A DNA stretch of 45,355 nt from Rikenellaceae bacterium (GTDB lineage Bacteria; Bacteroidota; Bacteroidia; Bacteroidales; Rikenellaceae). The translations under genes were made by a program, and so were the position numbers. Where the stretch lies: positions 1 to 45,355 of the forward strand of contig JAVVUK010000004.1 of NCBI GenBank assembly GCA_036653215.1, written 5' to 3'. The notes under the pieces are model-generated. The model worked only from the letters and a program-made list of their open reading frames with translations. It was not told the DNA's origin and searched no databases. Below, one piece after another: positions 6,701-24,062 of this stretch (position 1 is its first letter; every line of letters begins with the position of its first letter).

Positions 6701-8293
6701 TTAGATTTTTTTTGAATTTAATTTGTTTTTCATCTTTTGGGCTATTAGAAAAAGAAGCGTCAACACGAGAATTAACGTTGAGATGCGTCCTAACCAATCC
6801 CCATATATAGTATAAAAAGTCATTTTATCGTTTAGGTTTATCTTGTCTGTTATTGTCCCACGCACATCCCAACCCAACCTTTCTAAAACATCGCCTCGTT
6901 GGTTTATGAATGCTGATATGCCAGTGTTAGCACTTCGGGCTATGCTACGACGAGTCTCTATGGCACGGATACGTGCAAAGTTGAAATGTTGTTTATATCC
7001 GAATGTGTCTTTCCACCAACCGTCGTTTGTCACAATAAACATCACTTGGGCTCCCTCACGTACAAAACCCCCAAAATGCTCGCCATATATAGACTCAAAA
7101 CATATTGCAGGTCCTACTTTATTGCCTTTGTTTGAAAAAACTTCTCTTCTTTCTTGTGAGAGCAACCCTCCCACGCTGCCGCCAAGGTCGACGGTGAAGA
7201 ATGGTATATGTTTTAGGATGTTAGGATAAGGGATCATCTCAACACCAATCACGAGTTTCGATTTTATATATAAAGGGATGGTGTCAGCCTCACTTATGCA
7301 CACCGCTCCGTTTATCACATCGTAGTAGCCTTGAGGACTCTTTCGGGCACTTGCCGTAGGAGCTTCTGCTATGTTAAATGGATACATGCGATATGCAGTA
7401 ACCCCTGTTACAATAGAGGCTTGTGGATGTGTCGAGATGACTGATGTCTTAAGACGATTTAGTTCGGAGCTGCTTGTGAGATCGTCTTCTATGATGTTTC
7501 CCTCAACGGCAGTCTCTGGAGCTATTATAAAATCGACATCGTGAGGAGCTTCATTGGCAAGCGTTTCGATGATTGATAGCTGTTCATATTTTGTCATAGA
7601 ACCGAACTTCTCGGTATATGGGTCTATGTTAGGTTGAACGATGGTCACTTGTAGTGGACGTATCTCCTCTTTATAATTTATATATATCAAAAATGATATT
7701 ATAATAGGAATTACAATAACAGAGCCCGCCACGATGCCATATTTTTTGCTTCGTCTCTCTATCGCCTCAAAGATGAGGATGTTAGACAACAACATCCATA
7801 TCGTGCCACCGAGACTACCTGTATATTCATACCATTGTACAATCTTAGCATCTAAAGAAAATCCGTTTCCTAACATGATCCAAGGAAACGATATTTCACC
7901 GTTTAGATATAGATATTCTGCTGCTGTCCATGAAGAGATAAGCAGGACGTATGAGATTATAGGAGTGCTTTTTCGACTTGAGAGGCTAAAGAAGATAAGT
8001 GGGATGATAAAAAGGGTAACTCCAGCTACCGTTGCCGCTACAGGACCTATCCATGTTGCATTTGCAACCCATATTAAAGTTATGAGATGCCATGCTATGA
8101 GTATAAAGATGCTAAAGGCAATAAAAGCCCCATGCGTAGATCTTTTGTTGATCATAAGCAGAGGGACAAAGGCTATAAATAGAGTTAAAGAGGTTATCTC
8201 CACCCATGGCAGAGAGAGTAATGCTATCGAAAGTAGAGCAAGCAGCAGATTTTGTATATTGTAACCTCTATTTTTTAAGCCTTGACAACTCAT
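6701..8293 (-). CDS. lnt: apolipoprotein N-acyltransferase family (multi-TM + CN-hydrolase domain)
   Basis: 530 aa. Polytopic N-terminal half. The CN-hydrolase half has candidate Glu-Lys-Cys triad contexts (IIAPETA, KSKLVIGVE, AICFESIY) and a VQPNIDPYTEKF motif. It overlaps the upstream HAD gene by 26 nt. Confidence 0.8.
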   Translation of the reverse strand: MSCQGLKNRGYNIQNLLLALLSIALLSLPWVEITSLTLFIAFVPLLMINKRSTHGAFIAFSIFILIAWHLITLIWVANATWIGPVAATVAGVTLFIIPLIFFSLSSRKSTPIISYVLLISSWTAAEYLYLNGEISFPWIMLGNGFSLDAKIVQWYEYTGSLGGTIWMLLSNILIFEAIERRSKKYGIVAGSVIVIPIIISFLIYINYKEEIRPLQVTIVQPNIDPYTEKFGSMTKYEQLSIIETLANEAPHDVDFIIAPETAVEGNIIEDDLTSSSELNRLKTSVISTHPQASIVTGVTAYRMYPFNIAEAPTASARKSPQGYYDVINGAVCISEADTIPLYIKSKLVIGVEMIPYPNILKHIPFFTVDLGGSVGGLLSQERREVFSNKGNKVGPAICFESIYGEHFGGFVREGAQVMFIVTNDGWWKDTFGYKQHFNFARIRAIETRRSIARSANTGISAFINQRGDVLERLGWDVRGTITDKINLNDKMTFYTIYGDWLGRISTLILVLTLLFLIAQKMKNKLNSKKI

Positions 8294-9092
8294 AGTCGGT
8301 CTTTATTTTTGTAATTATGTTTTTAACTATTAGATCTACTTTGCTGCCTTCGCTATAATCTGACGGTACTATATAATCGGCACGATTTTCCTTAACGAGC
8401 TTTTGGCATTTGTCTTTGGTCTTTTCTTCGCTATATACGGCAATGGAATGCCCTCCAAGCTGTTTCACAAGACGCATACAAGGGATGTCTGTTGTTCCGT
8501 CACCAAAATATATCATTCGGCTAAAGGGAACATCACGTTGTTCGGTAGGTGTGTATTCGTTTACTTGGGTATGATCGTAAACGCTTGTTATACCTTTGTT
8601 TATCTTAAACAGAAATTGTGTTTTTGTGGTGTAGTTTACAACTACTGAAGGCCAATAGGCAACCCCATCGACATCGTAAAAGAAAGAACAAGCAAATATG
8701 TTCTTAAATTCATGAGCTATCTCTGTCCCCTCGATAATTTCTTTTATGCCAGAGGAGTTTATGTGGTGTTCTATGATAATATTGTTCTCAGCGGCATATT
8801 TGTTTATGCGAGAAAACCACTCTTTCACTCCTTTAAAAAACGTTATATCTTTACCCGAATTGCGAAAGGCATCACGACGAAGAGAGTGTTCTTTGTTCTT
8901 GGCGGTATGTATCATATAATACATATATGCCAAAATAGCATCTCCATCTTGCTCTTTGGCAAGACGATTGCTGTTAGACCAGAAGACATCATTGTTTTCA
9001 CCTACGGCAGGGATGAAGTTATACTCTTGCATATTGCCCGGAGATAAAGTCCCGTCAAAGTCGTAAATCATAGCAATTTTTATCTTGTTCAT
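8268..9092 (-). CDS. HAD-superfamily hydrolase
   Basis: 274 aa. HAD motif I (YDFDGTL) and motif IV (FGDGTTD). Confidence 0.7.
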   Translation of the reverse strand: MNKIKIAMIYDFDGTLSPGNMQEYNFIPAVGENNDVFWSNSNRLAKEQDGDAILAYMYYMIHTAKNKEHSLRRDAFRNSGKDITFFKGVKEWFSRINKYAAENNIIIEHHINSSGIKEIIEGTEIAHEFKNIFACSFFYDVDGVAYWPSVVVNYTTKTQFLFKINKGITSVYDHTQVNEYTPTEQRDVPFSRMIYFGDGTTDIPCMRLVKQLGGHSIAVYSEEKTKDKCQKLVKENRADYIVPSDYSEGSKVDLIVKNIITKIKTDYELSRLKK

Positions 9093-9118
9093 TCTCTTTA
9101 AATGTCAATGGTGAACCG

Positions 9119-9126
9119 CAAATATA
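9119..9126 (-). promoter_or_regulatory. putative -7 box (TATATTTG on minus strand) for the HAD-lnt-ribE operon
   Basis: TAnnTTTG match 27 nt upstream of the start at 9092. Confidence 0.4.
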
Positions 9127-9158
9127 TGAATAATTTCCAAAAATCGGAATATATTTTT

Positions 9159-9166
9159 TATCTTTG
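9159..9166 (+). promoter_or_regulatory. putative -7 box (TATCTTTG) for the DUF2723 gene
   Basis: TAnnTTTG match about 33 nt upstream of the ATG at 9199. Confidence 0.45.
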
Positions 9167-9198
9167 TCGCAAAATGAATAAATACTTAATTACTTCTA

Positions 9199-12100
9199 AT
9201 GAGCCATTTTAAGAAACTAAATCTATCTCTTGGTTGGGTTGCCTTCTTTATTTCAGCACTTGTATACTCCCTTACCGTAGAGCCGTCAGCAAGTCTTTGG
9301 GACTGTGGTGAATTTATAGCAACGTCATATAAGTTGGAGGTGGGACACCCTCCAGGAGCTCCTTTGTTTATGATAATAAACCGCTTCTTTACGTTCTTTG
9401 CTCCCAATACCTCTTATGTGGCATTGATGGTGAATATGGCTTCTGTCGTGGCGAGTGCTTTGACAATATCGTTTCTTTTTTGGACTATTGTCCACCTTGG
9501 ACAACGTCTTATTAAAAAAAGCATTGAGGAACTTTCAAAAAGTGATCTTCTCCTTATCTTCGGCTCTGCCTTTGTGGGGGCTTTAGGTTATGCGTTTACC
9601 GATACGTTTTGGTTTTCGGCTGTTGAGGGTGAGGTTTATGCCCAATCATCTCTTTTTACGGCTGTTGTCTTTTGGGCTATGCTTCGTTGGGAGGAAGAGG
9701 CTGATAGTCCTACTTCAGACAGATGGCTGATCCTTATTGCCTATATGATAGGTCTTTCAATAGGTGTCCATCTACTTAACCTCTTGGCTATTCCTGCTCT
9801 TGTATTCATATATTACAACAAAAAAATCAAAAGCCGTAGTCGTATTAGTTGGTGGGGTGCGCTCCTTGTCTCTATTGTGATTATAGCTATAATTTTATTT
9901 ATCATTGTTCCTAAAACTGTTTCTTTGGGTGCTTGGTTAGACAAGGTGTTTGTGAACAACCTAAATCTTCCTGTAAATAGTGGGCTTCTTACCTTTGTAG
10001 TTATACTATTAGCAGGCTTGACATATCTGGTCTATTATACACATACTCATAAAAAACGTTTATGGCACGTGGTGTCGCTCTCTTTGGCTGTCATGGTGTT
10101 TGGCTATTGCAGCTATGCCTCTGTTGTGGTACGTGCGATAGCAAACCCTCCTATGAACAGCAATGCTCCGTCCGATCCTTATTCTCTGCTTTCGGTGTTA
10201 AATCGTGAGCAATATGGTTATACTCCTCTTCTGTTTGGTCAATATTATAGTTCTCCAATAACATCTGTGGAATATAAAGAAGAGTTTTATCTTAACGATA
10301 AAACCAAAAAATACGAGAAGTACAAGGCTCTTGACCATTACGAATATGACGAGGCTACAACAACCTTCTTCCCACGTATGCACAGTGATAGACACGCCGA
10401 TTTATATAAAGACTGGGTTGACATAAAAGGACGCAATATTAACGTAGGAGATGGGAGAATGGTCACAGTGCCTACTTTTGCCGAAAATCTGGATTTCTTC
10501 TTTAAATATCAAGTCAACTATATGTATTGGCGATATTTTATGTGGAATTTTGTAGGTCGTCAAAACGATATTCAAGGTGATGGTGGCATCATGTATGGCA
10601 ACTGGTTGTCGGGGATCGATTTTATAGATAACATATATCTTGGTAATCAAACTTTTGTGCCAACGGAGCTTAAGGAAAACAGTGGACGTAACACTTATTT
10701 CTTCTTGCCTTTCTTGCTTGGCTTATGCGGTATCTTCTTCCAATTACGTCGTGATAAAGACAACTTCACTGTTGTGATGTTACTATTCCTTATGACGGGG
10801 CTTGCTATCATTTTATATCTTAACCAAACGCCAAGTGAGCCTCGTGAGCGTGACTATGCTTATGCAGGGTCGTTCTATGCTTTCTCTATTTGGATAGGGT
10901 TAGGCGTGTTGTTCATAAAGTCGCTTATCGATAAGATTAAAGTTCTTAAATTTTCAGATACCGCTAAAGCAGGTGTTGCTGTTGCTCTATCTTTAAGTGT
11001 CCCTATTGTCTTATTGGCGGAAAACTATGATGACCACGATCGTTCAAACAGATATGTAGCTAAAGATTTTGGATATAACTACCTGGAGTCTACACTTCCG
11101 GGTTCTATAATACTCCCTTATGGTGACAACGACACCTTCCCTCTTTGGAACACACAAGAGGTTTTGGGTGAGCGTACAGATGTTAAAATAGCCAACTTAA
11201 GTTATTTGTCGAGTGACTGGTATACTCATCAGATGGAACAACGCACAAACGATGCTATGGGCATAGATCTGACAATTCCTTACGATGTTTATTATCGTAA
11301 AAACGACTATATCCATGTTGTGAACCTCTATAATGAGTATATCCCTATAAAAATGGTGCTTAAGTTTGTTGCCGACAATAGCGAAAAGAAAAGCCAACTC
11401 ATAAAACAAATTGCTGCCGACATAGAACAGATAATCCCTACTTCTAAAATATCGATACCTGTAAATAAAGACAATGTCTTAAAAAGCGGTATTGTTAAGC
11501 CGGAAGATATGCACCTTGTTGTCGACACCATATTTATGGATATAAAAACCGATGTCCTAACACGTGCTGACTATGTGTTGCTTGATATGATAGGTAGTGC
11601 CGATTGGAAACGACCTATATATTTCACACAACCATATGCGGAGTCTATAAGCAAATTAGGACTTGTGGAATATCTTCAATACGATGGTTTCGCTTATCGA
11701 TTAGTGCCGATCAAAACAAAATTTTCACAACTTAACGTGGGGCGTGTAGATGTAGAATACCTATACGATAAGTTGATGAATAAATTCAGATATGGTAATC
11801 TTTGGGATGCCAACATCAATGTAGATGAGTTTATACGTACTACGGTGCGTGCATCGAGGGTGCGTGGTGGATTTTCAAGGTTGGCTCTTGAGCTTATAAA
11901 TCAAGGCGATACTGTGCGTGCTGTTAAGGTGCTTAAGAAAGGACTTACAGAGATACCTCTTAAAAATATATCGTTCGACTATCTGACATACGACTTTTTA
12001 GAGGCTCTATATAGGGCTGGGATGGTGAAAGAGGCAAATTCTATTGTTGCTGCTGAAGGTAACAACCTATTGGAATATATCGAATATTATGGTTCTCTTC

Positions 12101-12240
12101 CCGATGCTCAAGTTAAACTTATGGCAAGTGAGGTAAATGGAAAACTCTCTGAGATATACAACCTTTATGCGGTGGCTATAAACAACGGGCAGGCCGATAT
12201 TGTTAAGGAGCTCAAAGAATTTGCAGATCTATATAACTAA
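9199..12240 (+). CDS. DUF2723 (TMEM260-like, GT-C-type glycosyltransferase-like) membrane protein
   Basis: 1013 aa. Polytopic N-terminal half whose first loop (SLWDCGEFIATSYKLEVGHPPGAPLF) is typical of DUF2723. Long soluble helical C-terminal half. Confidence 0.7.
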   Translation: MSHFKKLNLSLGWVAFFISALVYSLTVEPSASLWDCGEFIATSYKLEVGHPPGAPLFMIINRFFTFFAPNTSYVALMVNMASVVASALTISFLFWTIVHLGQRLIKKSIEELSKSDLLLIFGSAFVGALGYAFTDTFWFSAVEGEVYAQSSLFTAVVFWAMLRWEEEADSPTSDRWLILIAYMIGLSIGVHLLNLLAIPALVFIYYNKKIKSRSRISWWGALLVSIVIIAIILFIIVPKTVSLGAWLDKVFVNNLNLPVNSGLLTFVVILLAGLTYLVYYTHTHKKRLWHVVSLSLAVMVFGYCSYASVVVRAIANPPMNSNAPSDPYSLLSVLNREQYGYTPLLFGQYYSSPITSVEYKEEFYLNDKTKKYEKYKALDHYEYDEATTTFFPRMHSDRHADLYKDWVDIKGRNINVGDGRMVTVPTFAENLDFFFKYQVNYMYWRYFMWNFVGRQNDIQGDGGIMYGNWLSGIDFIDNIYLGNQTFVPTELKENSGRNTYFFLPFLLGLCGIFFQLRRDKDNFTVVMLLFLMTGLAIILYLNQTPSEPRERDYAYAGSFYAFSIWIGLGVLFIKSLIDKIKVLKFSDTAKAGVAVALSLSVPIVLLAENYDDHDRSNRYVAKDFGYNYLESTLPGSIILPYGDNDTFPLWNTQEVLGERTDVKIANLSYLSSDWYTHQMEQRTNDAMGIDLTIPYDVYYRKNDYIHVVNLYNEYIPIKMVLKFVADNSEKKSQLIKQIAADIEQIIPTSKISIPVNKDNVLKSGIVKPEDMHLVVDTIFMDIKTDVLTRADYVLLDMIGSADWKRPIYFTQPYAESISKLGLVEYLQYDGFAYRLVPIKTKFSQLNVGRVDVEYLYDKLMNKFRYGNLWDANINVDEFIRTTVRASRVRGGFSRLALELINQGDTVRAVKVLKKGLTEIPLKNISFDYLTYDFLEALYRAGMVKEANSIVAAEGNNLLEYIEYYGSLPDAQVKLMASEVNGKLSEIYNLYAVAINNGQADIVKELKEFADLYN

Positions 12241-12815
12241 ATTTCAGATAACTTAAATGTTTTACGATGTAGGGGGGTGATGCCATATTGGGCGATCGCC
12301 TCCCTATGTTGTTTCGTTGGATATGCCTTGTTTTTACTCCATCCATATTCGGGGTATTGCTCGGCACAAAGTGTTATATAGTTGTCACGTTCGGTCTTAG
12401 CAAGGACAGAGGCTGCAGCGATAGAAGCATATAGGTCATCGCCTTTGATGATACATTGATGTGGCGTTGTTAGTTCGCTCTTCCATCTATTTCCGTCTAT
12501 CAATAAAAGTTCTGGGCTTACAGACAATCCTTTTACAGCTCTTGTCATTCCTAAAAAAGAGGCGTTGAGGATGTTTATCTCGTCTATTTCCTCAGCCGAC
12601 ACTTCTGCTATGCTCCATGCAATAGCCTCTTTCATGATGACTTCTCGAACGGCAAGGCGTTGCTTATGTGTCATCTTCTTAGAGTCACGAAGCAAAGGAT
12701 GCGAAAAATCTTTTGGGAGGATGACGGCGGCGGCAAAGAGCGAGCCTGCCAAACATCCACGACCCACCTCGTCACACCCTGCCTCAATAAGATTTTCGGT
12801 ATAATAACTATTCAT
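12237..12815 (-). CDS. rnhB: ribonuclease HII
   Basis: 192 aa. AGCDEVGRGCLAG catalytic motif and DSKKMT motif. Confidence 0.9.
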   Translation of the reverse strand: MNSYYTENLIEAGCDEVGRGCLAGSLFAAAVILPKDFSHPLLRDSKKMTHKQRLAVREVIMKEAIAWSIAEVSAEEIDEINILNASFLGMTRAVKGLSVSPELLLIDGNRWKSELTTPHQCIIKGDDLYASIAAASVLAKTERDNYITLCAEQYPEYGWSKNKAYPTKQHREAIAQYGITPLHRKTFKLSEI

Positions 12816-12820
12816 TGTTC

Positions 12821-14524
12821 TTATCGTTTTTGTTCACGGCAATAACTACATTTTCCACATGGAACAACGTCTGTTTCTCCAAAATATTCTTGCATTATTT
12901 TACTAAGACACCCCTTATTATTCTCTAAATATCCGAGCATCACAGAGGTGCGTTTCTCGTTTTTTTCACGTCTTAGGACATAGCTCTCATGCGTTATAAG
13001 GAGGCTTTCTATCGGCAGTCGTTCCACGTGGAGTGTGAGGCGTGGAGTCCTGTTTTTAGGGATGTAGCTTATCACTCGTTGTTCTCCAAGTTGTTTGAAG
13101 AATTTATTTATCTGTATCATGGTATATCCTGAAATACGAGCTAAATATTCTTCATCAATAGTTACAAATTCGGAGAATATGCCGGTGTGTATCCGAAGTA
13201 GAAAATTGATGAAATTATCGAGATCTTTACGACGTATTTGTAGACGATACATCTCGTCACGGCTGACGTTGAACATAACCCTTGTCGGATTTTCAAACTC
13301 CTCTGTGAGGGTCATATATCCGTTATAGTTTAATATGTCGATAGCGTTTATTATCGTCGAAGAGAAAAGCCCATACCTCTTACAAAAATCAAAGATGTTG
13401 AAGTCGAAGCTGCAATCTTCACCATCTCCATAAGCCACAGATAGATAGCTGTGTATGAGGTCGTAATATTTTTTTATGTCGTTTATGGGTGGAAATTGAG
13501 CCTTAAGAGTCGCCTTTATCGATTGTATGTCTCGTTTATTATATAGCAAAACGGCAAACGCTGGTTTCCCATCTCTTCCGGCACGTCCTGCCTCTTGGTA
13601 ATAGCTTTCAAGAGAGTCAGAGGGTGAATAATGCACCACAAAACGAACATCTGCCTTGTCTATACCCATTCCAAAGGCGTTTGTGGCAACCATAATACGG
13701 CAAGAGCCTTTCATAAACTTCTCTTGCTTGTCGCTTCTCATTTGGTAGCTCATGCCTCCGTTGTAGCTCTCGGCAGATATGCCTTCTCCGTTAAGAAAAG
13801 CGGCTATACTCTCTGTGTCTTCACGATAGCGTACATAGACTATACCACAGCCTTCAATGTTATTAATGACTTTTAGGATATGTTCTCTCTTATCCTCTAC
13901 CTCACGTTTTATGTATGATAAGTTTTTACGTTCGAAACTCATCTTTATGACGTTTTCTTTTTCGAAGAGGAGCTTTTGACATATATCACTCACAACAATA
14001 GGGGTTGCTGTTGCTGTTACGGCAAGTATAGGAGCATCGGGTTGTAATCGTCGTAACTCAGCAATGTTGATATATGAAGGTCTAAAGTCGTACCCCCATT
14101 GAGATATGCAATGAGCCTCGTCAACGGCAATCATAGAGATATTCATCCGTGCAAAACGGTGTTGAAACGTGGGGCTTGAGATGCGCTCTGGAGAGATATA
14201 CAGGAATTTATAATCGCCATATACACAGTTGTCTAACACTATATCTATCTCTCTTTGTGTCATGCCTGAGTGTATAGATAGGGCTGCTATTTTCTTCTTG
14301 TGAAGAGCGTCTATCTGGTCTTTCATGAGAGATATTAATGGGGTCACAACAACACACAAACCCTCCATTGAGAGAGCTGACACTTGGTATGTGATCGACT
14401 TACCTCCCCCCGTAGGCATTAAGGCAAGCGTATCTTTACCGCTACAAACACTCTCGATTATCTCCTTTTGCAGAGGTCTAAAAGTGGTGAAGCCCCAATA
14501 CTTATTTAATATTTCTTCAAGCAT
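12821..14524 (-). CDS. RecQ-family ATP-dependent DNA helicase (short form, no HRDC)
   Basis: 567 aa. Motif I MPTGGGKS, DEAH box VDEAHCISQWGYDFRP, and QEAGRAGRDG. A RecQ-type Zn motif sits at the extreme C-terminus (CLSKIMQEYFGE...CGKCSYC). Confidence 0.85.
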   Translation of the reverse strand: MLEEILNKYWGFTTFRPLQKEIIESVCSGKDTLALMPTGGGKSITYQVSALSMEGLCVVVTPLISLMKDQIDALHKKKIAALSIHSGMTQREIDIVLDNCVYGDYKFLYISPERISSPTFQHRFARMNISMIAVDEAHCISQWGYDFRPSYINIAELRRLQPDAPILAVTATATPIVVSDICQKLLFEKENVIKMSFERKNLSYIKREVEDKREHILKVINNIEGCGIVYVRYREDTESIAAFLNGEGISAESYNGGMSYQMRSDKQEKFMKGSCRIMVATNAFGMGIDKADVRFVVHYSPSDSLESYYQEAGRAGRDGKPAFAVLLYNKRDIQSIKATLKAQFPPINDIKKYYDLIHSYLSVAYGDGEDCSFDFNIFDFCKRYGLFSSTIINAIDILNYNGYMTLTEEFENPTRVMFNVSRDEMYRLQIRRKDLDNFINFLLRIHTGIFSEFVTIDEEYLARISGYTMIQINKFFKQLGEQRVISYIPKNRTPRLTLHVERLPIESLLITHESYVLRREKNEKRTSVMLGYLENNKGCLSKIMQEYFGETDVVPCGKCSYCREQKR

Positions 14525-14527
14525 TTT

Positions 14528-16516
14528 TTATTGTTGCACTCGTGACATACGTTCTAAAAACTCGTCTGCCAAAGCACTTTTCTTTTCCATGTGTTGAAGC
14601 ACCTCTATCACAAAGTCGTTTTTGTCGAAGTCTCCACGCACAGCTTCAAAATCACGTTTTTTAGTACGTGGACCCCCGTCGATGCCAAACCCTGTACTTG
14701 TCGTTAGGGTAAATTCTTTATGAGCATCTTGATATAGGGCTTTGTCAAGCTCAAGAACGCAGAATTTCCAGCTTTTTATATAGTCGACTATGTCTTGAAC
14801 TTGTATGTCGTCTATGCTTTTGCAGATGCGTGTCGTTAAGTGTTCGATGACCCATGTCCATTCGAAGTCGTAATAGTTTTTATTAAGTGCCACAAACTCA
14901 TGATGTATTGCCTCCAACGTCGCAATCTCTCCCGATGATATGCCGTCAATAATACGGTTCACCTCACTTTTGGGTGCTATAAGCCCAGAGACATCTGTCC
15001 ATCCACCACTGCCAGTACATTGTGTAGGACGTAGACGGTCTCGTATCTCTTCAATACTTTTCCATTCCACACCCTCAAGACGCTTGATGAGCGAGTTTCC
15101 TAAGAATTTCGTTATTCCCCAGTTGTATAATCTAAGTCCGTTTTTTAGGGATGAATTTTTTATGACGCAACTTTGGAAGGAGTATGATTTAGAGTCTTCA
15201 CCCGAAATTTCCACCATTTCTTTAAGGAGAGCCTCTCCCTTAAGCATTTTATTTATAGTGTATGGGCTAAGAAGATTAAAGTTGATCTGGTCAAATTTGC
15301 AGTCGCATTTACGTTTATCACGCTTTGGCCATTTTTTTGCGTCACGAATTGTGCCGACGCTTCTTAAGTTTACTCCAGGAACGAGGACAGACTCGTTGTC
15401 TCCCTCTATAAGATAAGAAAACGGCATAGATGAGGTGTCAGCGTTGTTGTAGTGACGTCCCATAACTAAAGAAAAAGCTCCGATTTTAAGAGGCCATAAG
15501 ATATATGAGTCGCTTGTTGTCTTTGAGCCTCTCTCGACGATGCCTTGATGTATAGGTCCTAACTTGTACATATGGTTACTTTGGTTCGAGCCGCTTCCTG
15601 CATTTAAGAACGAATACATCCCTGCTATAAGCAAGGTAGATTTGTGATGAGTGACGGTATAAGGACCTGCAAAGATAGAACATGACTCTCCGTGCATCCC
15701 GACACAGTTAGAAAAGAAAAGAGAGTTCTCAGCCGAATATTGTTTCCCTATTTCTGTTCCTTGTCCAATGAAGCATTTTTCTAATATAACACCATCGGTA
15801 ATTTTTGTAGAGTTACATATTATGAAATGCTCAGCCATAACGCCACGTCCTATTATGGAAGGGGCTTCAGCGGTGCTATTTATCGATCCATCAATCAACC
15901 TTGCGGCACCGTCAATTTGCGTTGACACTCCCATTTTAACATTTACTATCTCTCCACAATTTAAAATAACGGAGTCTGCTCCGACAGATGCCTTTAGATC
16001 TCTTATGTGTTCTGTATATTCGGCAATCAGCTTTTTTATGGCTTCTATGGTGTCTGTGCGGTGACGATATAGCGCAATGACATATGCTAAATGAGACGAT
16101 AGGTAGTCGAAAATAGGAACTTCACGTCCTCCAGTCTCGTTGAGTACAGCGACTTCGGTGCCATTTCCAAAAGTAGAGCCGTCTTCGGCTATTAGACATT
16201 CTATGTTATTTATCCTTACCCTATCTCCGATGTTATAGTTTGCTATATATTGGTTTACATTGTTTATATATACATTATCACCAATGATACAGTTGTGTAA
16301 AAGCACATTTTTTATGCCCGTTAACGTCCTCACTCCGCCACGAAGTGCTACATTCCCATTTTGAAGACCTATCTTTACAGAGCCTGAAAAACGGACGCTC
16401 ATAAATCGAGCGAAATCCAATTTCTCGTCTTTTACTTCTATTAAAGACCAATCCTTAGCATAACAATCCCTATCTTTAAATTTATTTATCTCCTCTTGTG
16501 TTAGTTTTCTATACAT
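14528..16516 (-). CDS. DUF4954-like protein (beta-helix-like repeats, function unknown)
   Basis: 662 aa, no signal peptide. The N-terminal two thirds have hexapeptide-like periodicity (e.g. IGDNVYINNVNQYIANYNIGDRVRINNIE). The C-terminal third looks helical. The family name is from memory. Confidence 0.55.
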   Translation of the reverse strand: MYRKLTQEEINKFKDRDCYAKDWSLIEVKDEKLDFARFMSVRFSGSVKIGLQNGNVALRGGVRTLTGIKNVLLHNCIIGDNVYINNVNQYIANYNIGDRVRINNIECLIAEDGSTFGNGTEVAVLNETGGREVPIFDYLSSHLAYVIALYRHRTDTIEAIKKLIAEYTEHIRDLKASVGADSVILNCGEIVNVKMGVSTQIDGAARLIDGSINSTAEAPSIIGRGVMAEHFIICNSTKITDGVILEKCFIGQGTEIGKQYSAENSLFFSNCVGMHGESCSIFAGPYTVTHHKSTLLIAGMYSFLNAGSGSNQSNHMYKLGPIHQGIVERGSKTTSDSYILWPLKIGAFSLVMGRHYNNADTSSMPFSYLIEGDNESVLVPGVNLRSVGTIRDAKKWPKRDKRKCDCKFDQINFNLLSPYTINKMLKGEALLKEMVEISGEDSKSYSFQSCVIKNSSLKNGLRLYNWGITKFLGNSLIKRLEGVEWKSIEEIRDRLRPTQCTGSGGWTDVSGLIAPKSEVNRIIDGISSGEIATLEAIHHEFVALNKNYYDFEWTWVIEHLTTRICKSIDDIQVQDIVDYIKSWKFCVLELDKALYQDAHKEFTLTTSTGFGIDGGPRTKKRDFEAVRGDFDKNDFVIEVLQHMEKKSALADEFLERMSRVQQ

Positions 16517-16533
16517 ATAGTTTAAGTTTGTTT

Positions 16534-16965
16534 TTATTCCCGGTACGTTATAACAAGAAGTTTATTATAACGCCAAAACATATGTTTGTTTTTTATAATT
16601 ACGATATTCCCATTTATGGTGTACGATTGTTTTGGAATAACGCCAAGCACTCTTATCTTCGAGCCTCCGACATATATGCAGTCGGTGTGTATGGCATCTA
16701 TTTCCTTCATTGCCTTTTTCTGTACAACAGGGTTTATGTCATATTGTCGTGTAAAGCCTTTTATGCGTCTTATGATTTTGTCTTCCCAAAGTTTACGTTC
16801 GTTTCCAATTATGAAATAACGTTTTTCTTTAAGCATACAATCTTCATTGTCGCACAAATCATCGCTTAGAGCAATGTAATAATCTATATCGCTTGTTGGG
16901 CTATCTATGTCGTGATAACAACTGCAAAATAGCAGTGGCACCATTGTTAAGTATCGTATTAGCAT
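16534..16965 (-). CDS. hypothetical small lipoprotein
   Basis: AT-rich ORF. Candidate lipoprotein signal MLIRYLTMVPLLFCSC. I recognise no family. The longest ORF starts at 16995. Coding status is uncertain. Confidence 0.35.
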   Translation of the reverse strand: MLIRYLTMVPLLFCSCYHDIDSPTSDIDYYIALSDDLCDNEDCMLKEKRYFIIGNERKLWEDKIIRRIKGFTRQYDINPVVQKKAMKEIDAIHTDCIYVGGSKIRVLGVIPKQSYTINGNIVIIKNKHMFWRYNKLLVITYRE

Positions 16966-18312: not shown

Positions 18313-18387
18313 ATAATTAAATTCGTCTTATGGAAAATAGATCAATAAAAATATTGGTAAACGAGATTATGTAAGATATCCATAATA

Positions 18388-18426
18388 ATACAACGCCTAC
18401 AAATTTAAGATTTGTGGGCGTTGTAT
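18388..18426 (-). terminator. hairpin terminator downstream of the DUF2059 gene
   Basis: 17-bp stem atacaacgcctacaaat / atttgtgggcgttgtat with one mismatch and a 5-nt loop, 44 nt beyond the stop at 18470. Confidence 0.55.
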
Positions 18427-18469
18427 TGTTTCCTTTCTATAAAAATTAATGGTTATCTATGTCTCAATG

Positions 18470-19083: not shown

Positions 19084-19091
19084 TATGTTTG
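19084..19091 (+). promoter_or_regulatory. putative -7 box (TATGTTTG) for the Hdr-like operon
   Basis: TAnnTTTG match 20 nt upstream of the ATG at 19111. Confidence 0.4.
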
Positions 19092-19110
19092 TATAGATAA
19101 AAATCATATA

Positions 19111-19809
19111 ATGGGAAAATATTACGATGCACTAATGCAGGATGTCCGTTTCGTGGAGGGGCTTAACGCTTGCATGGGGTGTGGGGTCTGTACGGCGATC
19201 TGTCCGGCGGCCGAATTTTATCTTTACGATCCTCGTCAGGTCGTCCTTCAAGTGGAGAGCAAAGACGATGAGACAATAGAAAAACTTCTTAAAGGCGATA
19301 TGATATGGTATTGTGGTCAATGTATGTCATGCAAACCACGTTGTCCACGTGGGAATACGCCTGGTTACATAATACAAGCTTTACGTACTTTATCTCAAAA
19401 TTTAGGCTTTTTTGTGTGTTCCGAAAAGGGTCGTCAGCAGCTTGCCATAAAACGTACCGTTGGTGAAAATATAGCGACAGTGGGATATTGTATAACTCCA
19501 CGTAGGGTCGATCCTGCACTTCATTTAGAGCAAGGTCCTGTTTGGAAATGGGTTTATGAGAATGACCAGAAGGTCTTCGATAGGCTTTCTGAAAATTATA
19601 ACAAAAAAGGAGCTGGCAACTTCCGTGTCTTAGACGATGATGTCCTTAAAGATATAGAAAACATATTTGAGGTTACCGGAGGAAAGGCTTTTTTTGATAA
19701 TATAGAGAAATGCTCGGATGAATATGCACGTAAAGAGGGATTTAACGGTGCAGACGACGAATATTTCAAAATGGTATGTACTGCAAATAACGGAAAACAT
19801 AATGGCTAA
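19111..19809 (+). CDS. HdrC-like 2x[4Fe-4S] protein
   Basis: 232 aa from MGKYYD. Two ferredoxin motifs, CMGCGVCTAICP and CGQCMSCKPRCP, in HdrC-like spacing. The ORF-track TTG start at 19051 adds an AT-rich, implausible leader. Confidence 0.75.
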   Translation: MGKYYDALMQDVRFVEGLNACMGCGVCTAICPAAEFYLYDPRQVVLQVESKDDETIEKLLKGDMIWYCGQCMSCKPRCPRGNTPGYIIQALRTLSQNLGFFVCSEKGRQQLAIKRTVGENIATVGYCITPRRVDPALHLEQGPVWKWVYENDQKVFDRLSENYNKKGAGNFRVLDDDVLKDIENIFEVTGGKAFFDNIEKCSDEYARKEGFNGADDEYFKMVCTANNGKHNG

Positions 19810-20878
19810 AATATTTAATTCATGGACTGACTATCAAAAAGAGATAGCAGACGACAACTACTATTATGTACGAAGTTGCATAAGACAAAATTTCTTTCCG
19901 GGATCGGAGACAATGTTTTTAAAGATAATAGGAGATGATCTGGGTAAAAACGTATTTGACGATCCAAAACACACTTCTTGTTCGGGTATAGCATATCATG
20001 CAGACATAGTCCCTATGGAGACTACAATGACCATAGTGGCACGTCAATTTGCAACAATGACAGAGGCAGGATATGAAAATCTGGTCCCTTCGTGTATCAC
20101 CTCTTTTGGGATATATGCCGAGATTATAGATACGTGGAAACATTTCCCTAAAAAGGAAGAGCAGATCCGTGAGATGCTTTATAAGGCGACAAAAAAAGAG
20201 TTTGTGGTTCCTAAAAACTTAGCTCACACTTCCGATATAATGTTTAAATATCGTGATGAGATATTTAAAAAAAGGAAATATTCGCTTGTAAATAAAAAGA
20301 CAGGCGAGCCTTTGCGTGTGGTTGACCACATAGGATGTCACTATGCTAAGGTGTTTCCTACAAAAGGGGTTGGTGGGTCTGAGTTTCCTTATGTCCTTGC
20401 CGGTATGGTTGAGGCGTGGGGTGGCATTTCTGTGGACTACCCAGAGCGTCGTCACTGCTGTGGCTTTGGCTTTCGCAACTATCTTGTTCAAGCAAACAGA
20501 GGCTATTCTGTGTCAAATTCAAAACGTAAATTTGAGTCTATGCAACCATACAAACCAGATTTTATTGTTGCTAATTGTCCGGGTTGTACCATGTTTTTAG
20601 ATAAGTGGCAATATACAATTTACGAGATGGAAAAGGTGTTTTATGGCGATAACGGAGGGATCCCTGTCCTCACTTACGAGGAGATGGCGGCTCTTATTAT
20701 GGGTTATGACCCTTGGGAGATAGGTCTTCAGATGCACCAAGTGGACGTGGAGCCTCTTTTAGATAAGATGGGCATTGAATATGACCCTGAAAAAAAATAC
20801 CTCGATAAAGATGGGAATAAGATGGTACGTCCAGAACTTGCAGGGATAAATATTTGTGGCAGTTGTAATATAATATAG
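19802..20878 (+). CDS. HdrB-like CCG-domain protein (N-terminal CCG domain degenerate, C-terminal intact)
   Basis: 358 aa from MAKIFNSW. The C-terminal domain has the full CXnCCGXmCXXC pattern (GCHYAKV...HCCGFGF...NCPGCTMF). The N-terminal domain reads C...SCSG...SCITS. The start overlaps the upstream stop by 8 nt. Confidence 0.75.
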   Translation: MAKIFNSWTDYQKEIADDNYYYVRSCIRQNFFPGSETMFLKIIGDDLGKNVFDDPKHTSCSGIAYHADIVPMETTMTIVARQFATMTEAGYENLVPSCITSFGIYAEIIDTWKHFPKKEEQIREMLYKATKKEFVVPKNLAHTSDIMFKYRDEIFKKRKYSLVNKKTGEPLRVVDHIGCHYAKVFPTKGVGGSEFPYVLAGMVEAWGGISVDYPERRHCCGFGFRNYLVQANRGYSVSNSKRKFESMQPYKPDFIVANCPGCTMFLDKWQYTIYEMEKVFYGDNGGIPVLTYEEMAALIMGYDPWEIGLQMHQVDVEPLLDKMGIEYDPEKKYLDKDGNKMVRPELAGINICGSCNII

Positions 20879-20879
20879 G

Positions 20880-21884
20880 ATGAATAATGTAATTATAGTA
20901 GGCGGTGGTTTTGCAGGTATGCAAACAGCATTAACGCTCAATCAGCTTGGCATTGGTGTAACGCTTTTTGAAAGGGAAGAGACGCTTGGTGGACACGTCA
21001 GAAATTGGCATACTCTTTTTCCAGATATGTCATTGGCGGAAGACACGTTGCAACATATGATAGATGCCGTTACCTCAAAAAATATAGATATTCGCTTTAA
21101 TACAGAAGTGGTAGATATATCTAAAAATAGTGTAACTCTTAAAGGTGGTGAGGTTGTTGCAGCAGCTGCCGTAGTGATATGTTCTGGCTATAAACTCTTT
21201 GATGCTAAGCTAAAACAAGAATATGGATATGGAATTTACGATAAAGTTATCACTTCTGCCGATTTTGAGAAGGCTTTTAAGGAAAATAAAGTAGAAGAGA
21301 TATGTGGAGGCACTCCTAAGACTATCGCTTTTGTCCATTGTGTAGGTTCTCGAGACCAACAGGTTCAACAAGAACATTGTTCGAGAGTATGTTGTGTCAC
21401 AGGAGTTAAGCAGGCAATCAAGGTGCGTAAGTTATATCCCGATTGTGAAGTTTATAATTTCTATATGGATATTCGTATGTTTGGTGCAGGCTATGAAGAG
21501 ATGTATCGCACTGCTCAACAACAATATCACATCCACTTTATTCGTGGTCGTGTGTCTGAGGTAACTCCTAAGTTGAGTGGGGAGGTGCTTATAAAAACAG
21601 AAGATACCCTACTTGCACGTCCTATGCGTATCAGTGTCGATCTTTTAGTGTTGATGATAGGTATGTGTGCTGGCGATGACACCAAAACGTTCGCCGCCTC
21701 AACAGGAATTACGCTTCGTCCAAGTGGTTTTATAAAACCATTAAACTCATTTGAAGGGAATGGACTAACAGGTGTCGATGGCATATTTATGGCAGGTTGT
21801 GCGGCGGCTCCTCATAATATACAAGAGACTATAAATAGTGGGTCTAACGTCGCCCTTGAGGTTGCTAAATATTTGAAGAAATGA
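20880..21884 (+). CDS. short HdrA-like FAD/[4Fe-4S] flavoprotein
   Basis: 334 aa. Rossmann motif IIVGGGFAGMQTA and the HdrA-type cluster motif HCVGSRD...HCSRVCC. No ferredoxin insert or extension domains. Confidence 0.75.
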   Translation: MNNVIIVGGGFAGMQTALTLNQLGIGVTLFEREETLGGHVRNWHTLFPDMSLAEDTLQHMIDAVTSKNIDIRFNTEVVDISKNSVTLKGGEVVAAAAVVICSGYKLFDAKLKQEYGYGIYDKVITSADFEKAFKENKVEEICGGTPKTIAFVHCVGSRDQQVQQEHCSRVCCVTGVKQAIKVRKLYPDCEVYNFYMDIRMFGAGYEEMYRTAQQQYHIHFIRGRVSEVTPKLSGEVLIKTEDTLLARPMRISVDLLVLMIGMCAGDDTKTFAASTGITLRPSGFIKPLNSFEGNGLTGVDGIFMAGCAAAPHNIQETINSGSNVALEVAKYLKK

Positions 21885-22207
21885 CAAATTGGGGATATGA
21901 CTTGATGGCTACACGTAGCATCAATCTTGATACTGCTGATTTTAAACCCTCAGACAAGCTATTTGCGTGTGAGGAGGCTTTGAGGGCTTGTATAGGGTGT
22001 GGTGCTTGTTCGGCAGCTTGTACAGCAGGGCTCATAAGTTCGTTTAACTTTCGTAAGATGCACACATATATTCGTCGTGGCGAGTTAGGAAGTATCAAAG
22101 AAGAGGTACAAAAGTGTATGCTGTGTGGTAAATGCAGTATGTTATGTCCAAGAGGCATAAATACACGAAATGTGATAGTATCAATAAAACGTATATTTGC
22201 AGATTAA
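21881..22207 (+). CDS. small 2x[4Fe-4S] ferredoxin-like (HdrC-like) protein
   Basis: 108 aa. Motifs CIGCGACSAAC and CMLCGKCSMLCP. ATGA start/stop overlap with the upstream gene. Confidence 0.7.
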   Translation: MTNWGYDLMATRSINLDTADFKPSDKLFACEEALRACIGCGACSAACTAGLISSFNFRKMHTYIRRGELGSIKEEVQKCMLCGKCSMLCPRGINTRNVIVSIKRIFAD

Positions 22208-22209
22208 CT

Positions 22210-23991
22210 ATGGGACACTATTTTCACCTCTTTACAATTCCTTTCACAGTAGGTATGCTGTTCCTTTTCACTGTTCTTATCGTGAAATATACTACATGGA
22301 TAAAAAATTTGTCTGCTTCCGATAAATGCCTTGTAAAGAAAGGTATATGTACGATATCCACCTTTAAAGCCACGTGGAACACGATCAAAGAATCGCTTCT
22401 ACACGTATCTATATTTAAGAGAAATAGGCTGTTGGGATTTATGCACGCCTCTCTTGCTTTCGGGTGGTTCCTTCTTATCGTCGTTGGGGCTATGGAGTCG
22501 TCAAATGCTCTTCGTGGCTCGTTAGAGATGCCTTATGTTCATATATTTCTAAAGTTTTTTGTCCCTACCGAGAGCAATGCTTTGGCCGATATATATGCCC
22601 ATATCATGGACGCTCTTCTTCTTATAATATTGATAGGTGTTGCTTTAGCTTGGTATAAGAGGTTTAACTCAAAACGTATGGGGATGCGTAAAACAACAAA
22701 GCATACGTTGGGGGATAGGGTCGCTATTGCTTCTTTATGGGCAATCTTCCCTGCTCGACTTTTGGCAGAGAGCGTTACGTGTGGATTGAATGGTTCTGGT
22801 GGGTTTATGACGCACACTATTGGAGAATGGCTTGTCAATCTTTTACCTTTTGAGGTATTGGCTTTTGCGGAACTTCCTATGTGGTGGATCTACTCTTTGG
22901 CGTTAGGCGTATTTTTTGTCGCCCTTCCGTTTTCTCGTTATATGCACATCTTTACCGAAATACCTCACATCTTTTTAAAAGAATATGGCGTGCGTCCCTC
23001 TAATGAGGCATCTTCAATAGATAATTTCCAAATTCAAGCGTGTTCTCGTTGTGGGTTATGTATCGATAATTGTCAGCTTCAAAGCGATCTAAATATCACA
23101 AAACAACTTCCAGTCTATTTCTTGCGAGATAGACGTTATGGCAAAGATTGTGGCTCTTCGGCCGATGAATGCCTTATGTGTGGGCGTTGTAGCGTTGCTT
23201 GTCCTGTGGGTATAGACATAAATATGTTACGTCAAAATAGCCGTAACACGCTACATAAAAAGACAGACATCAACAGCTATTCATATCTTCAAGAACAGAG
23301 TGTTGGTAGTGGCAAGGTGGGCTATTTCTCAGGTTGCATGACCAAGCTAACTCCTGCTACGATAACATCTATGTTAAAGATTTTCGCTGCTGCGGGGGAC
23401 GATGCTGTTTACTTGGATGAGGAGGGTGGCGTATGTTGTGGTCGTCCTTTGATGTTGTCCGGAGAGATAGAGTCGGCACGTAAACTCATGGATTTTAATA
23501 AAGCATTGATAGCAAAAAGTGGTATCACGACGCTTGTTACCTCATGTCCGATATGTCTAAAAGTATTTAAGGAAGAATACGATTTGAAGGGTGTAGAAAT
23601 AATCCATCATACTCAATATATAGATCGTCTTATTTCTCAAGGTCGCATAAAGGTAAATCCAACTAATTTAAAATACACATATCATGATCCTTGTGAGTTG
23701 GGACGTGGCTCTAAGATATACGATGAGCCAAGACGTGTCATAAGTGTTGTAGGTGAGCTTGTTGAGGCTGCTTCTAACAGAGAAAATTCACGCTGCTGTG
23801 GTTCGAGCCTTGCACATACCTCGCTTTTAACGGCTCAAAAACAGCAGATTAGAGATATCACATTATCCGAATTTGTAGCAACGGGAGCTGAAGTCCTTGT
23901 CACCTCATGTCCTTTATGTATGAGTTCTTTTAATACTAAAGAGTTGACTGTGAAAGATATATCCGAGATCGTGGTTGGGAATATACGGTAA
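22210..23991 (+). CDS. fusion of NarI/DsrM/HdrE-type membrane cytochrome b with HdrD/DsrK-type Fe-S/CCG protein
   Basis: 593 aa from MGHYFHLF. About 5 TM helices with conserved-looking His residues and an LPFSRYMHIF motif (NarI-family PFSRxxH). These are followed by CSRCGLCIDNC and CLMCGRCSVACP, then two intact CCG domains (C...VCCGRP...SCPIC and C...RCCGSS...SCPLC). The ORF-track start at 22132 overlaps the previous gene. Confidence 0.75.
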   Translation: MGHYFHLFTIPFTVGMLFLFTVLIVKYTTWIKNLSASDKCLVKKGICTISTFKATWNTIKESLLHVSIFKRNRLLGFMHASLAFGWFLLIVVGAMESSNALRGSLEMPYVHIFLKFFVPTESNALADIYAHIMDALLLIILIGVALAWYKRFNSKRMGMRKTTKHTLGDRVAIASLWAIFPARLLAESVTCGLNGSGGFMTHTIGEWLVNLLPFEVLAFAELPMWWIYSLALGVFFVALPFSRYMHIFTEIPHIFLKEYGVRPSNEASSIDNFQIQACSRCGLCIDNCQLQSDLNITKQLPVYFLRDRRYGKDCGSSADECLMCGRCSVACPVGIDINMLRQNSRNTLHKKTDINSYSYLQEQSVGSGKVGYFSGCMTKLTPATITSMLKIFAAAGDDAVYLDEEGGVCCGRPLMLSGEIESARKLMDFNKALIAKSGITTLVTSCPICLKVFKEEYDLKGVEIIHHTQYIDRLISQGRIKVNPTNLKYTYHDPCELGRGSKIYDEPRRVISVVGELVEAASNRENSRCCGSSLAHTSLLTAQKQQIRDITLSEFVATGAEVLVTSCPLCMSSFNTKELTVKDISEIVVGNIR

Positions 23992-24016
23992 TATAGTTGA
24001 TTTTAGAATAGATAAG

Positions 24017-24062
24017 AAAAGAACATGGTATCAAAGTCATAACTTTGATACCATGTTCTTTT
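24017..24062. terminator. bidirectional rho-independent terminator
   Basis: Perfect 21-bp stem aaaagaacatggtatcaaagt / actttgataccatgttctttt with loop cata. It sits between the convergent Hdr-like operon and the patatin gene, and its right arm overlaps the patatin stop codon. Confidence 0.85.

Follow-up and report, generated by a model that had tools for sequence, protein, structure and literature searches.

A conserved five-gene operon of Rikenellaceae predicted to encode a membrane-bound Hdr-like complex related to sHdr

Introduction

Five adjoining plus-strand genes, here called P1 to P5, lie in a 45,355-nt stretch of DNA from a Rikenellaceae bacterium (GenBank assembly GCA_036653215.1, contig JAVVUK010000004.1; the whole stretch is referred to as the window), and they raise the question of what kind of redox complex they encode and on what it might act. 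A preliminary description made from the sequence had read them as an Hdr-like operon with a membrane-anchored last unit, acting on a disulfide or other substrate and possibly by flavin-based bifurcation. No published description of the operon was found in a literature search. After profile, structure, phylogeny and neighbourhood comparisons, we put at about even chances the reading that the five genes specify a self-contained Hdr-like complex bound to the membrane. It would be a new variant, coupled to menaquinone, in the family to which the sulfur-oxidising sHdr systems belong. The evidence that carries this reading is a core of sHdr type (P1 to P3), joined through a small ferredoxin (P4) to a membrane protein (P5) with the fold of EtfD/EMO.

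The five subunits

Pfam and NCBIfam profile searches of P1-P5 bore out the identities first proposed for them, namely HdrC-, HdrB- and HdrA-like proteins, a ferredoxin and a cytochrome b-CCG fusion (Table 1). P1 matches Pfam Fer4_8 and reaches 84.8 bits with the NCBIfam HdrC model (under the cut-off of 350); its eight cluster cysteines are conserved at 0.98-1.00 among 53 homologues. It is 42% identical to the C1 protein of a soluble C1B1AC2B2 operon, 35% to an HdrC linked to QmoC and 29% to sHdrC1. For comparison with type I sHdr we used a reference locus (L090) with the gene order dsrE-C1-B1-A-H-C2-B2-hyp-lbpA and with tusA and sox genes nearby. Against this locus P1 scores better with sHdrC1 than with sHdrC2, while P4 scores better with sHdrC2 than with sHdrC1. 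P4 matches Pfam Fer4_8, Fer4_9 and Fer4_7, its eight cysteines are invariant, and it is most similar to the core of sHdrC2 (36% over 70 aa) and to a ferredoxin domain, that of a QmoC-like protein (36%). No homology was found between this 108-aa ferredoxin and the 282-aa sHdrH. The qmoC model matches only the Fer4 parts of the two proteins (40.7 bits for P1 and 24.5 bits for P4, against a cut-off of 300). The cubane cysteines of P1, P4 and P5 are all invariant or nearly so (at least 0.97).

The flavoprotein P3 carries Pfam Pyr_redox_2 and the motifs GGGFAG and CVGSRD...CSRVCC, the latter with the invariant cluster cysteines C154, C167, C171 and C172. Its top match in the PDB is sHdrA of Hyphomicrobium denitrificans (6TJR; full-length, E 9e-56), and it is 33% identical to sHdrA of the reference locus. 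The methanogen HdrA aligns to it in the core only (HdrA residues 146-223 and 321-562 of 658), and the NCBIfam HdrA score is 172 against a cut-off of 1400. CVGSRD sits at the position of the second dinucleotide-binding motif. By these alignments P3 lacks the N-terminal and ferredoxin domains of bifurcating HdrA.

For P2, Pfam finds one CCG domain, and the NCBIfam HdrB score is 142 (cut-off 450). All five cysteines are kept in the C-terminal CCG domain. In the N-terminal one only three of five are left (C26, C60 and C98), all three invariant, a detail missing from the preliminary description. Altogether, eight cysteines of P2 do not vary among 54 homologues: C26, C60, C98, C179, C219, C220, C259 and C262. 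The C-terminal CGSC of P2 was considered as a built-in DsrC-like redox arm and rejected, its two cysteines being conserved in only 35% and 2% of the homologues.

P5 is a three-domain single chain with about five transmembrane (TM) helices (about four strong hydrophobic segments were scored, the fifth was read by eye), two cubane [4Fe-4S] sites and two CCG (non-cubane) sites, both complete; Pfam and NCBIfam find two CCG domains and Fer4_8. All 18 cluster cysteines are conserved, including all ten of the two CCG domains. When the AlphaFold2 model (pLDDT 81.6) was compared by Foldseek, the top match was EtfD of Mycobacterium smegmatis (9OJN) over the whole length (TMq 0.66, E 5.6e-18), followed by LutA and HdrB as partial fold matches; 9OJN is also the sole PDB sequence match of P5 (profile match, E 3.8e-25). 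The structure of Syntrophus EMO has been described in a study in which 9OJN is named 'MsEMO', and the EMO architecture given there consists of five NarI-like TM helices with heme b, a two-cubane domain and a non-cubane domain (bioRxiv 10.64898/2026.08.18.745454). The whole-length match to EtfD/EMO thus upholds the early claim that the last unit is membrane-anchored and of a quinone-interacting type. Two histidines of P5 are invariant, H79 in TM2 and H246 after TM5, both near the cytoplasmic face; H65, H111 and H165 are also conserved, and H79 aligns to a histidine of EtfD, though by itself the aligned segment lacks significance. This histidine pattern suggests one proximal heme b in P5, the arrangement of mycobacterial EtfD.

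The soluble part of P5 resembles an EMO-like protein that adjoins etfBA on a Terriglobales contig (27% identity over 419 aa, E 4e-24). It is nearer to that protein than to B2-type proteins (E 3e-4), and derivation of P5 from B2 was therefore set aside. Nor do P4 and the TM domain of P5 look like a split QmoC: hhalign gave a probability of 0.6% for the P5 TM domain against those of QmoC-like proteins. A 764-aa homologue of P5 with 49% identity and a C-terminal extension (L003:358-2652) is seemingly stand-alone, with no P4, P3 or P2 homologue in the 357 bp 5' of it and with unrelated genes downstream.

Phylogeny of P2 and the nearest relatives of the core

P2 has few relatives. An exhaustive search of 1.84 billion representative proteins found only 678, and its own family is one cluster plus fragments. 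In a neighbour-joining (NJ) tree with 100 bootstraps, P2 forms one clade (100% bootstrap) with the HdrB proteins of QmoC-linked operons of Acidobacteriota/Actinobacteriota and with that of a soluble C1-B1-A-C2-B2 operon. This clade is sister to sHdrB1 of sulfur oxidisers (94%), so that P2 itself stands outside the sHdrB1 clade, and sHdrB2 and methanogen HdrB fall outside the joint grouping. Both sister clades lack the final cysteine of the N-terminal CCG domain (C-x-T-S in place of C-x-x-C), and one cysteine of the CC pair is also gone in P2 and sHdrB1, which gives the common signature 'C...[S/T/C]C...C-x-T-S'. Against the reference locus P2 matches sHdrB1 with E 1e-29, better than B2. By tree and motif the C-B-A core is thus not of the methanogen type. 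The best matches of P1, P2, P3 and P4 are C1, B1, A and C2, respectively, in line with the earlier remark that the order C-B-A followed by a second C/B-like unit parallels sHdr. P2 is probably the catalytic subunit, given its high conservation, the histidines and cysteines that do not vary in it, and its sister group sHdrB1, for which a catalytic role has been proposed.

The nearest full-length outgroups of P2 occur in operons of two types. The QmoC-linked type, found in Acidimicrobiales, Terriglobales and relatives (L091-L094), has the order qmoC-like, hdrC, hdrB and short hdrA; the QmoC-like proteins of these closest non-Bacteroidota relatives score 254-295 bits, hence they are membrane-quinone linked. 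The soluble type (L096:9054-13740, also L098, L100, L101 and L085) reads hdrC1-hdrB1-hdrA-hdrC2-hdrB2 without sHdrH or lbpA, and its products are 40-42% identical to P1-P3. In L085 a NifX/Nitro_FeMo-Co-like gene lies between hdrC and hdrB, and there is a second partial hdrB copy upstream. We know of no experimental characterisation of either type.

Sulfur genes stand beside the QmoC-HdrCBA operon in three of the four loci (L091, L093 and L094; Table 1). The molybdenum-bisPGD (Mo-bisPGD) enzyme of L091 is Phs/Psr/Soe-like, has no evident Tat signal and belongs to the same tightly packed operon. This operon has the look of another uncharacterised Hdr-like system with a membrane link, and its role may lie in sulfur metabolism. 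In L093, from a 5.2-Mb genome, the dsrC/tusE gene product scores above the family cut-off and the dsrK-like product reaches 331 bits (cut-off 400). These neighbourhoods point, circumstantially, to sulfur metabolism for the wider clade.

Distribution, conservation and search for partner genes

Relatives of P3 were collected by a scan of one genome per GTDB species. At least 532 were found and the best 80 were examined; nearly all of these 80 are from Alistipes, Tidjanibacter or other Rikenellaceae, a family that saturates them, and they carry no information on other Bacteroidales families. Cultured carriers are A. putredinis DSM 17216, A. timonensis and A. montrealensis, and metagenome-assembled genomes (MAGs) assigned to A. 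senegalensis carry the genes as well. The five-gene order is identical in every sufficiently long locus (~80 Rikenellaceae species genomes). Identity to the window proteins in Rikenellaceae is ~70% for P2, the most conserved subunit, 61% for P1, 53% for P5 and 50% for P3 and P4. A metagenome scan gave the same five-gene order in ~45 further contigs of GC content 0.26-0.60, in which P2 is 60-71% and P5 38-47% identical to the window proteins. The operon is thus not a peculiarity of the window, as it might have seemed at first. It is, on this comparative evidence, a widespread conserved module of gut Alistipes and many environmental Bacteroidota. The Bacteroidales-like background noted earlier is that of Rikenellaceae; an NCBI protein from a MAG of this family has the same sequence as P5 (100% identity).

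Neither the Rikenellaceae nor the environmental loci show a further gene conserved beside these five. Neighbours that recur in the environmental loci were considered as a functional clue and discarded, as they are housekeeping genes only (RsmE, DUF4159, a protein sorted by the type IX secretion system and typical of Bacteroidota, ValRS and thioredoxin). Recurrent upstream ORF clusters in Alistipes were likewise dropped: their sizes agree with those of the genes annotated there in one Alistipes locus (thyA, folA and redoxin), these clusters are absent from the window, and those flanks are not common to the window. Because the gene order is invariant and no other gene is conserved alongside, the five genes form a self-contained functional unit.

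Partner and carrier genes were looked for in two ways, with Pfam on all window ORFs of at least 120 aa and with tblastn. For the latter, LbpA, DsrE, sHdrH, TusA, DsrC and EtfB were used as queries against 1.42 Mb, that is, the whole window plus up to 10 kb on either side of the operon in 83 Rikenellaceae loci, and zero matches were obtained. The preliminary finding of no carrier gene nearby (dsrC, tusA, lbpA, dsrE or etf in the window) therefore extends to the related loci. Neither apr nor coenzyme M/coenzyme B genes were found in the neighbourhood, and no MvhD, FdhB, Flox or NAD(P)H-binding module is encoded there.

Operon boundaries and surroundings

The coordinates of the five packed ORFs and all four junctions are exactly as first claimed (Table 1), and the chosen start codons are consistent with the N-termini of homologues. 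The five co-oriented, overlapping or abutting genes are thereby confirmed, as far as gene arrangement can tell, as a tightly packed operon. Of the two bounding signals named in the preliminary description, the hairpin is real, with a stem of at least 20 bp. It lies between convergent genes and overlaps the stop codon of the minus-strand patatin gene, for which reasons it is probably a bidirectional intrinsic terminator. The upstream signal, TATGTTTG, is present, but the motif alone is weak promoter evidence, because the window has 61 copies of TAnnTTTG where 47.8 would be expected (a marginal enrichment); its role as a -7 box is plausible but unproven. A sigma-70 promoter scan gave matches no more numerous than in shuffled sequence. 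A riboswitch or leader RNA 5' of the operon was also considered and rejected, as Rfam (E-value mode) returned only generic, spurious hairpin matches, at the terminator. Further TAnnTTTG motifs lie inside the operon at 22192-22199, 21476-21483 and 20527-20534, one of them 11 nt 5' of the P5 start; either chance or a role as internal promoters could account for them. Another long perfect hairpin, similar to that 3' of P5 and with a 20-bp stem, is found at 18384-18430, between the bioA-like and DUF2059 genes, and long bidirectional terminator hairpins may be a feature of the source genome.

Table 1. Coordinates of the operon genes, of the flanking signals and of the QmoC-linked relatives (positions of L091 and L093 are those of their own loci)
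Feature	Position	Strand	Size	Assignment or content	Junction or context
P1	19111-19809	+	232 aa	HdrC1-like, 2x[4Fe-4S], C-terminal extension	8-nt overlap with P2
P2	19802-20878	+	358 aa	HdrB1-like	1-nt gap to P3
P3	20880-21884	+	334 aa	short sHdrA-type flavoprotein, FAD and one [4Fe-4S]	ATGA overlap with P4
P4	21881-22207	+	108 aa	2x[4Fe-4S] ferredoxin-like	2-nt gap to P5
P5	22210-23991	+	593 aa	cytochrome-b-like membrane/Fe-S/double-CCG fusion	hairpin 3' of gene
TATGTTTG	19084..19091	+		candidate Bacteroidetes-type -7 box (position-based)	20 nt 5' of P1 start codon
Hairpin	24017..24062	.	stem ~20-21 bp	perfect hairpin	between convergent P5 and patatin genes
L091 (Acidimicrobiales)	7705-16573			qmoC-hdrC fusion (763 aa), hdrB, short hdrA, PsrB-NrfD fusion (511 aa), Mo-bisPGD enzyme (951 aa)	
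L092				nothing informative; transposases	EMO-like gene with etfBA 7 kb away
L093	7909-16533			qmoC-hdrC-hdrB-hdrA	adjoining divergent dsrC/tusE, 305-aa protein (no family match), dsrK-like gene, cysteine desulfurase
L094				QmoC-HdrCBA operon	CsoR-family regulator, CoA-disulfide-reductase-rhodanese and thioredoxin beside it

Every other window ORF of 120 aa or more is a housekeeping gene or has no relation to the operon; examples are the genes for a BioA-like aminotransferase, DUF2059, patatin, PPIase, PheS, RadA, SppA, KdtA and FtsK. Three minus-strand genes may be mentioned: one at 2204-2977 for a small Fe-S protein that has a pair of CDGSH domains and a divergent Fer4_19 domain, and one at 40403-40933 for a second small Fe-S protein, of the DUF2148 ferredoxin-domain kind, neither with a link to the operon, and one at 14528-16516 for a large conserved protein with DUF4954 (680 bits) and DUF6819.

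Proposed function and rival explanations

P1, P2 and P3 make up a core of sHdrC1/B1/A type, with P4 and P5 in place of sHdr C2-B2. If the operon encodes a menaquinone-coupled relative of sHdr, electrons would be exchanged between a substrate at the non-cubane site of P2 and menaquinone by way of P1, P3 (FAD/[4Fe-4S]), P4 and P5, and within P5 they would pass over the non-cubane clusters, the cubane clusters and one proximal heme b. P3 is probably dimeric, as in sHdrA, and P4 seems to connect it directly with the EMO-like P5. The substrate would probably be a sulfur species, either sulfane sulfur, a persulfide, or a thiol or disulfide borne by a ubiquitous carrier. In fumarate-respiring Bacteroidota the complex would probably oxidise its substrate and reduce menaquinone, the direction proposed for type II sHdr, here minus EtfAB; the reverse is possible. 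We put forward, more tentatively, a specific form of this proposal, which is possible but doubtful: that Alistipes, other Rikenellaceae and environmental Bacteroidota have a minimal sHdr-like enzyme, independent of LbpA and EtfAB, that oxidises cytoplasmic sulfane or persulfide sulfur and delivers the electrons directly to menaquinone via its EMO/HdrDE-type subunit, or that runs in reverse to reduce sulfite or a sulfur carrier.

Several points weigh against the sHdr-like reading. P2 is only 26% identical to sHdrB1. A substrate, carrier or sulfur-transferase gene is linked in 0 of ~130 loci, and sHdrH, LbpA, DsrE and TusA are absent locally, though in published accounts they are constant companions of sHdr (PMC11094781). 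For the outgroups, the tie to sulfur is circumstantial and stems from four neighbourhoods, none of the Bacteroidota type, and no physiological precedent was found for sulfane-to-sulfite oxidation in strict gut anaerobes. The NarI-type Pfam match of P5 is 21.7 bits, just under the gathering cut-off of 22.9, although the fold match to EtfD backs it up; heme binding and menaquinone interaction are read from fold and conserved histidines. Finally, by analogy with a relay role of EMO type, the CCG sites of P5, and conceivably that of P2, need not bind a thiol.

This last point leads to the main rival, a pure relay, in which the complex would pass electrons between a soluble one-electron carrier (ferredoxin, flavodoxin or other) and menaquinone, with all CCG clusters as relays and no sulfur substrate. 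The precedent is EMO itself, whose non-cubane clusters relay electrons from ETF to (methyl)menaquinone and catalyse no disulfide chemistry (bioRxiv 10.64898/2026.08.18.745454). The preliminary step from CCG domains to a disulfide substrate was accordingly overstated. The lack of any linked substrate or carrier gene fits a pure relay as well, and the self-contained nature of the operon would be accounted for if the partner were ubiquitous, as ferredoxin is. A further point in its favour is that fermenting Bacteroidota must reoxidise the ferredoxin that is reduced by pyruvate:ferredoxin oxidoreductase (PFOR). We nevertheless regard it as unlikely. The pattern of P2 is of the catalytic type, with the highest conservation (~70% against ~50% for others) and invariant histidines and cysteines around the CCG sites, and its sister group is the proposed catalytic sHdrB1. 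Five subunits with about nine or more Fe-S clusters plus a flavin would also be elaborate for a wire between ferredoxin and menaquinone, and the related QmoC-HdrCBA operons have sulfur-related neighbours.

Next comes the mechanism favoured in the preliminary description, a flavin-based bifurcating or confurcating, menaquinone/ferredoxin-linked reductase of a heterodisulfide. The combination of an HdrA-family flavoprotein with CCG sites of HdrB/HdrD type agrees with it, and P5, with all 10 CCG cysteines like HdrD, HdrB and sHdrB2, could hold a complete disulfide-reducing site. On thermodynamic reasoning, reduction of typical disulfides by menaquinol only is endergonic, which makes confurcation attractive. 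The composition of the operon speaks otherwise: P3 is without the N-terminal domain and both ferredoxin domains that carry the low-potential branch, CVGSRD replaces its second dinucleotide motif, and no module that would serve as a two-electron donor (MvhD, FdhB, Flox or an NAD(P)H-binding protein) is encoded. With the low-potential ferredoxin domains and the donor module missing, canonical flavin-based bifurcation is unlikely and this part of the preliminary proposal was not sustained; we consider the reductase as a whole improbable. The structural study of sHdrA reportedly also argued against bifurcation for the short HdrA type.

Canonical sHdr sulfur oxidation, with LbpA and the genes for lipoate maturation and sulfur transfer elsewhere in the genome, would account for the homology of the C1/B1/A core and the common B1 signature, and only ~20 kb per genome was inspected. 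It is quite improbable all the same. In described systems lbpA and the transferases cluster with shdr (PMC6067878, PMC11094781), while here sHdrH is missing inside the operon in every locus, P4 and P5 replace C2B2, and P2 stands outside the sHdrB1 clade. Characterised non-Hdr CCG systems (LutABC, GlpABC, the type E succinate:quinone reductase with SdhE, TfrAB and GlcF), the first three of which the preliminary description had itself named as alternatives that could refute it, are effectively refuted: P5 and P2 give weak partial NCBIfam matches to TfrB, LdhH, GlpC, SdhE and GlcF, and P5 a partial fold match to LutA, but the scores are far under the cut-offs (TfrB 108 against 385, LdhH 90 against 800, GlpC 66 against 278, SdhE 39.5 against 500), no LutB/LutC, GlpA/GlpB, SdhA/SdhB or TfrA gene is found in the operon or its flanks, and an HdrA-type flavoprotein is foreign to all of them.

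Significance

Alistipes is among the most abundant human gut genera, and a conserved five-subunit complex of respiratory type there marks a real gap. Were sulfane, persulfide or sulfite sulfur handled by it, the complex would bear on gut H2S homeostasis; the minimal sHdr-like enzyme in particular would couple sulfur turnover to fumarate respiration and represent an unrecognised route in the sulfur/H2S economy of the gut. With no H subunit, no LbpA cluster and no Etf, the operon could serve as a compact minimal model for chemistry of sHdr type, and it would be a natural union of an Hdr-like core with a quinone module of EMO/HdrDE type. Gut metagenome studies count the KEGG orthologues hdrA2/B2/C2 as 'methane metabolism' (PMC9515963, PMC8862142). 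If KEGG assigns the Alistipes genes to these orthologues, part of that signal may stem from this operon and not from methanogens.

Comparison with known systems

The operon uses the same building blocks as methanogen HdrABC and HdrDE, QmoABC and DsrMK, namely an HdrA flavoprotein, an HdrC ferredoxin, CCG domains and a NarI-type cytochrome b. All NCBIfam equivalog scores are far under their cut-offs (methanogen HdrA/B/C, QmoC, DsrK, TmcB, HmcF, TfrB, LdhH, GlpC, SdhE and GlcF), and none of the named equivalog systems therefore fits. Compared with methanogen HdrABC, P3 has 334 aa where the long HdrA has ~650, and one CCG domain of P2 is degenerate. Qmo has two HdrA-like subunits and this operon a single HdrA-like gene; P5 is not QmoC, and apr genes are missing. 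P5 scores 58 bits against the DsrK cut-off of 400; unlike in DsrMK(JOP), the DsrM- and DsrK-type parts are not separate here, and DsrC is not encoded nearby.

P5 shares its three-domain single chain with EMO of Syntrophus aciditrophicus and with EtfD (9OJN). It keeps ten CCG cysteines, whereas the distal cluster of EMO/EtfD is variable or degenerate, and it has 593 aa against 706 and 1042 aa. EMO/EtfD genes are adjoined by etfAB; P5 stands in an Hdr-like operon, with no etf in the window or within the flanks (up to 10 kb) of any Rikenellaceae locus.

The closest core is that of the QmoC-HdrCBA and L096-type operons (P2 41-45%, P1 and P3 up to 42% identical), which share the B1 signature and the short HdrA with it; the QmoC type is quinone-linked, too. 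They differ in having QmoC, or nothing, in place of P4 and P5, and in gene order.

sHdr is defined by H plus C2B2, or by H plus B3 and etfAB, in either case with lbpA and sulfur transferases; the type II operon reads shdrC1B1AHB3-etfAB-emo, and its electrons are proposed to reach menaquinone via EMO (PMC11094781). With type I our operon has in common C1-B1-A followed by a second C/B-like unit, with P4 nearest to the C2 core, a full-length match of P3 to sHdrA, and the degenerate N-terminal CCG motif of sHdrB1 in P2. It differs in having no sHdrH between A and the C2-like gene (0 tblastn matches), a membrane-anchored P5 in place of the soluble B2, a C-terminal CCG domain in P2 with five of five cysteines where sHdrB1 has lost one, an identity of only 26-33%, and no LbpA or sulfur transferases linked in the operon loci. 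The likeness to type II extends from the C1-B1-A core, with its short HdrA and B1-type HdrB, to the membrane protein of EMO type. sHdrH and EtfAB are missing here, as is HdrB3, in which C2 and B2 are fused and there is one non-cubane site; lbpA, tusA and dsrE are not near the operon, and the hosts are strict gut or sediment anaerobes. P4 and P5 would together take the role of C2B2 in type I and of B3-EtfAB-EMO in type II. The operon fails the definitions of both sHdr types, yet it has their core together with the EMO-type output module of type II.

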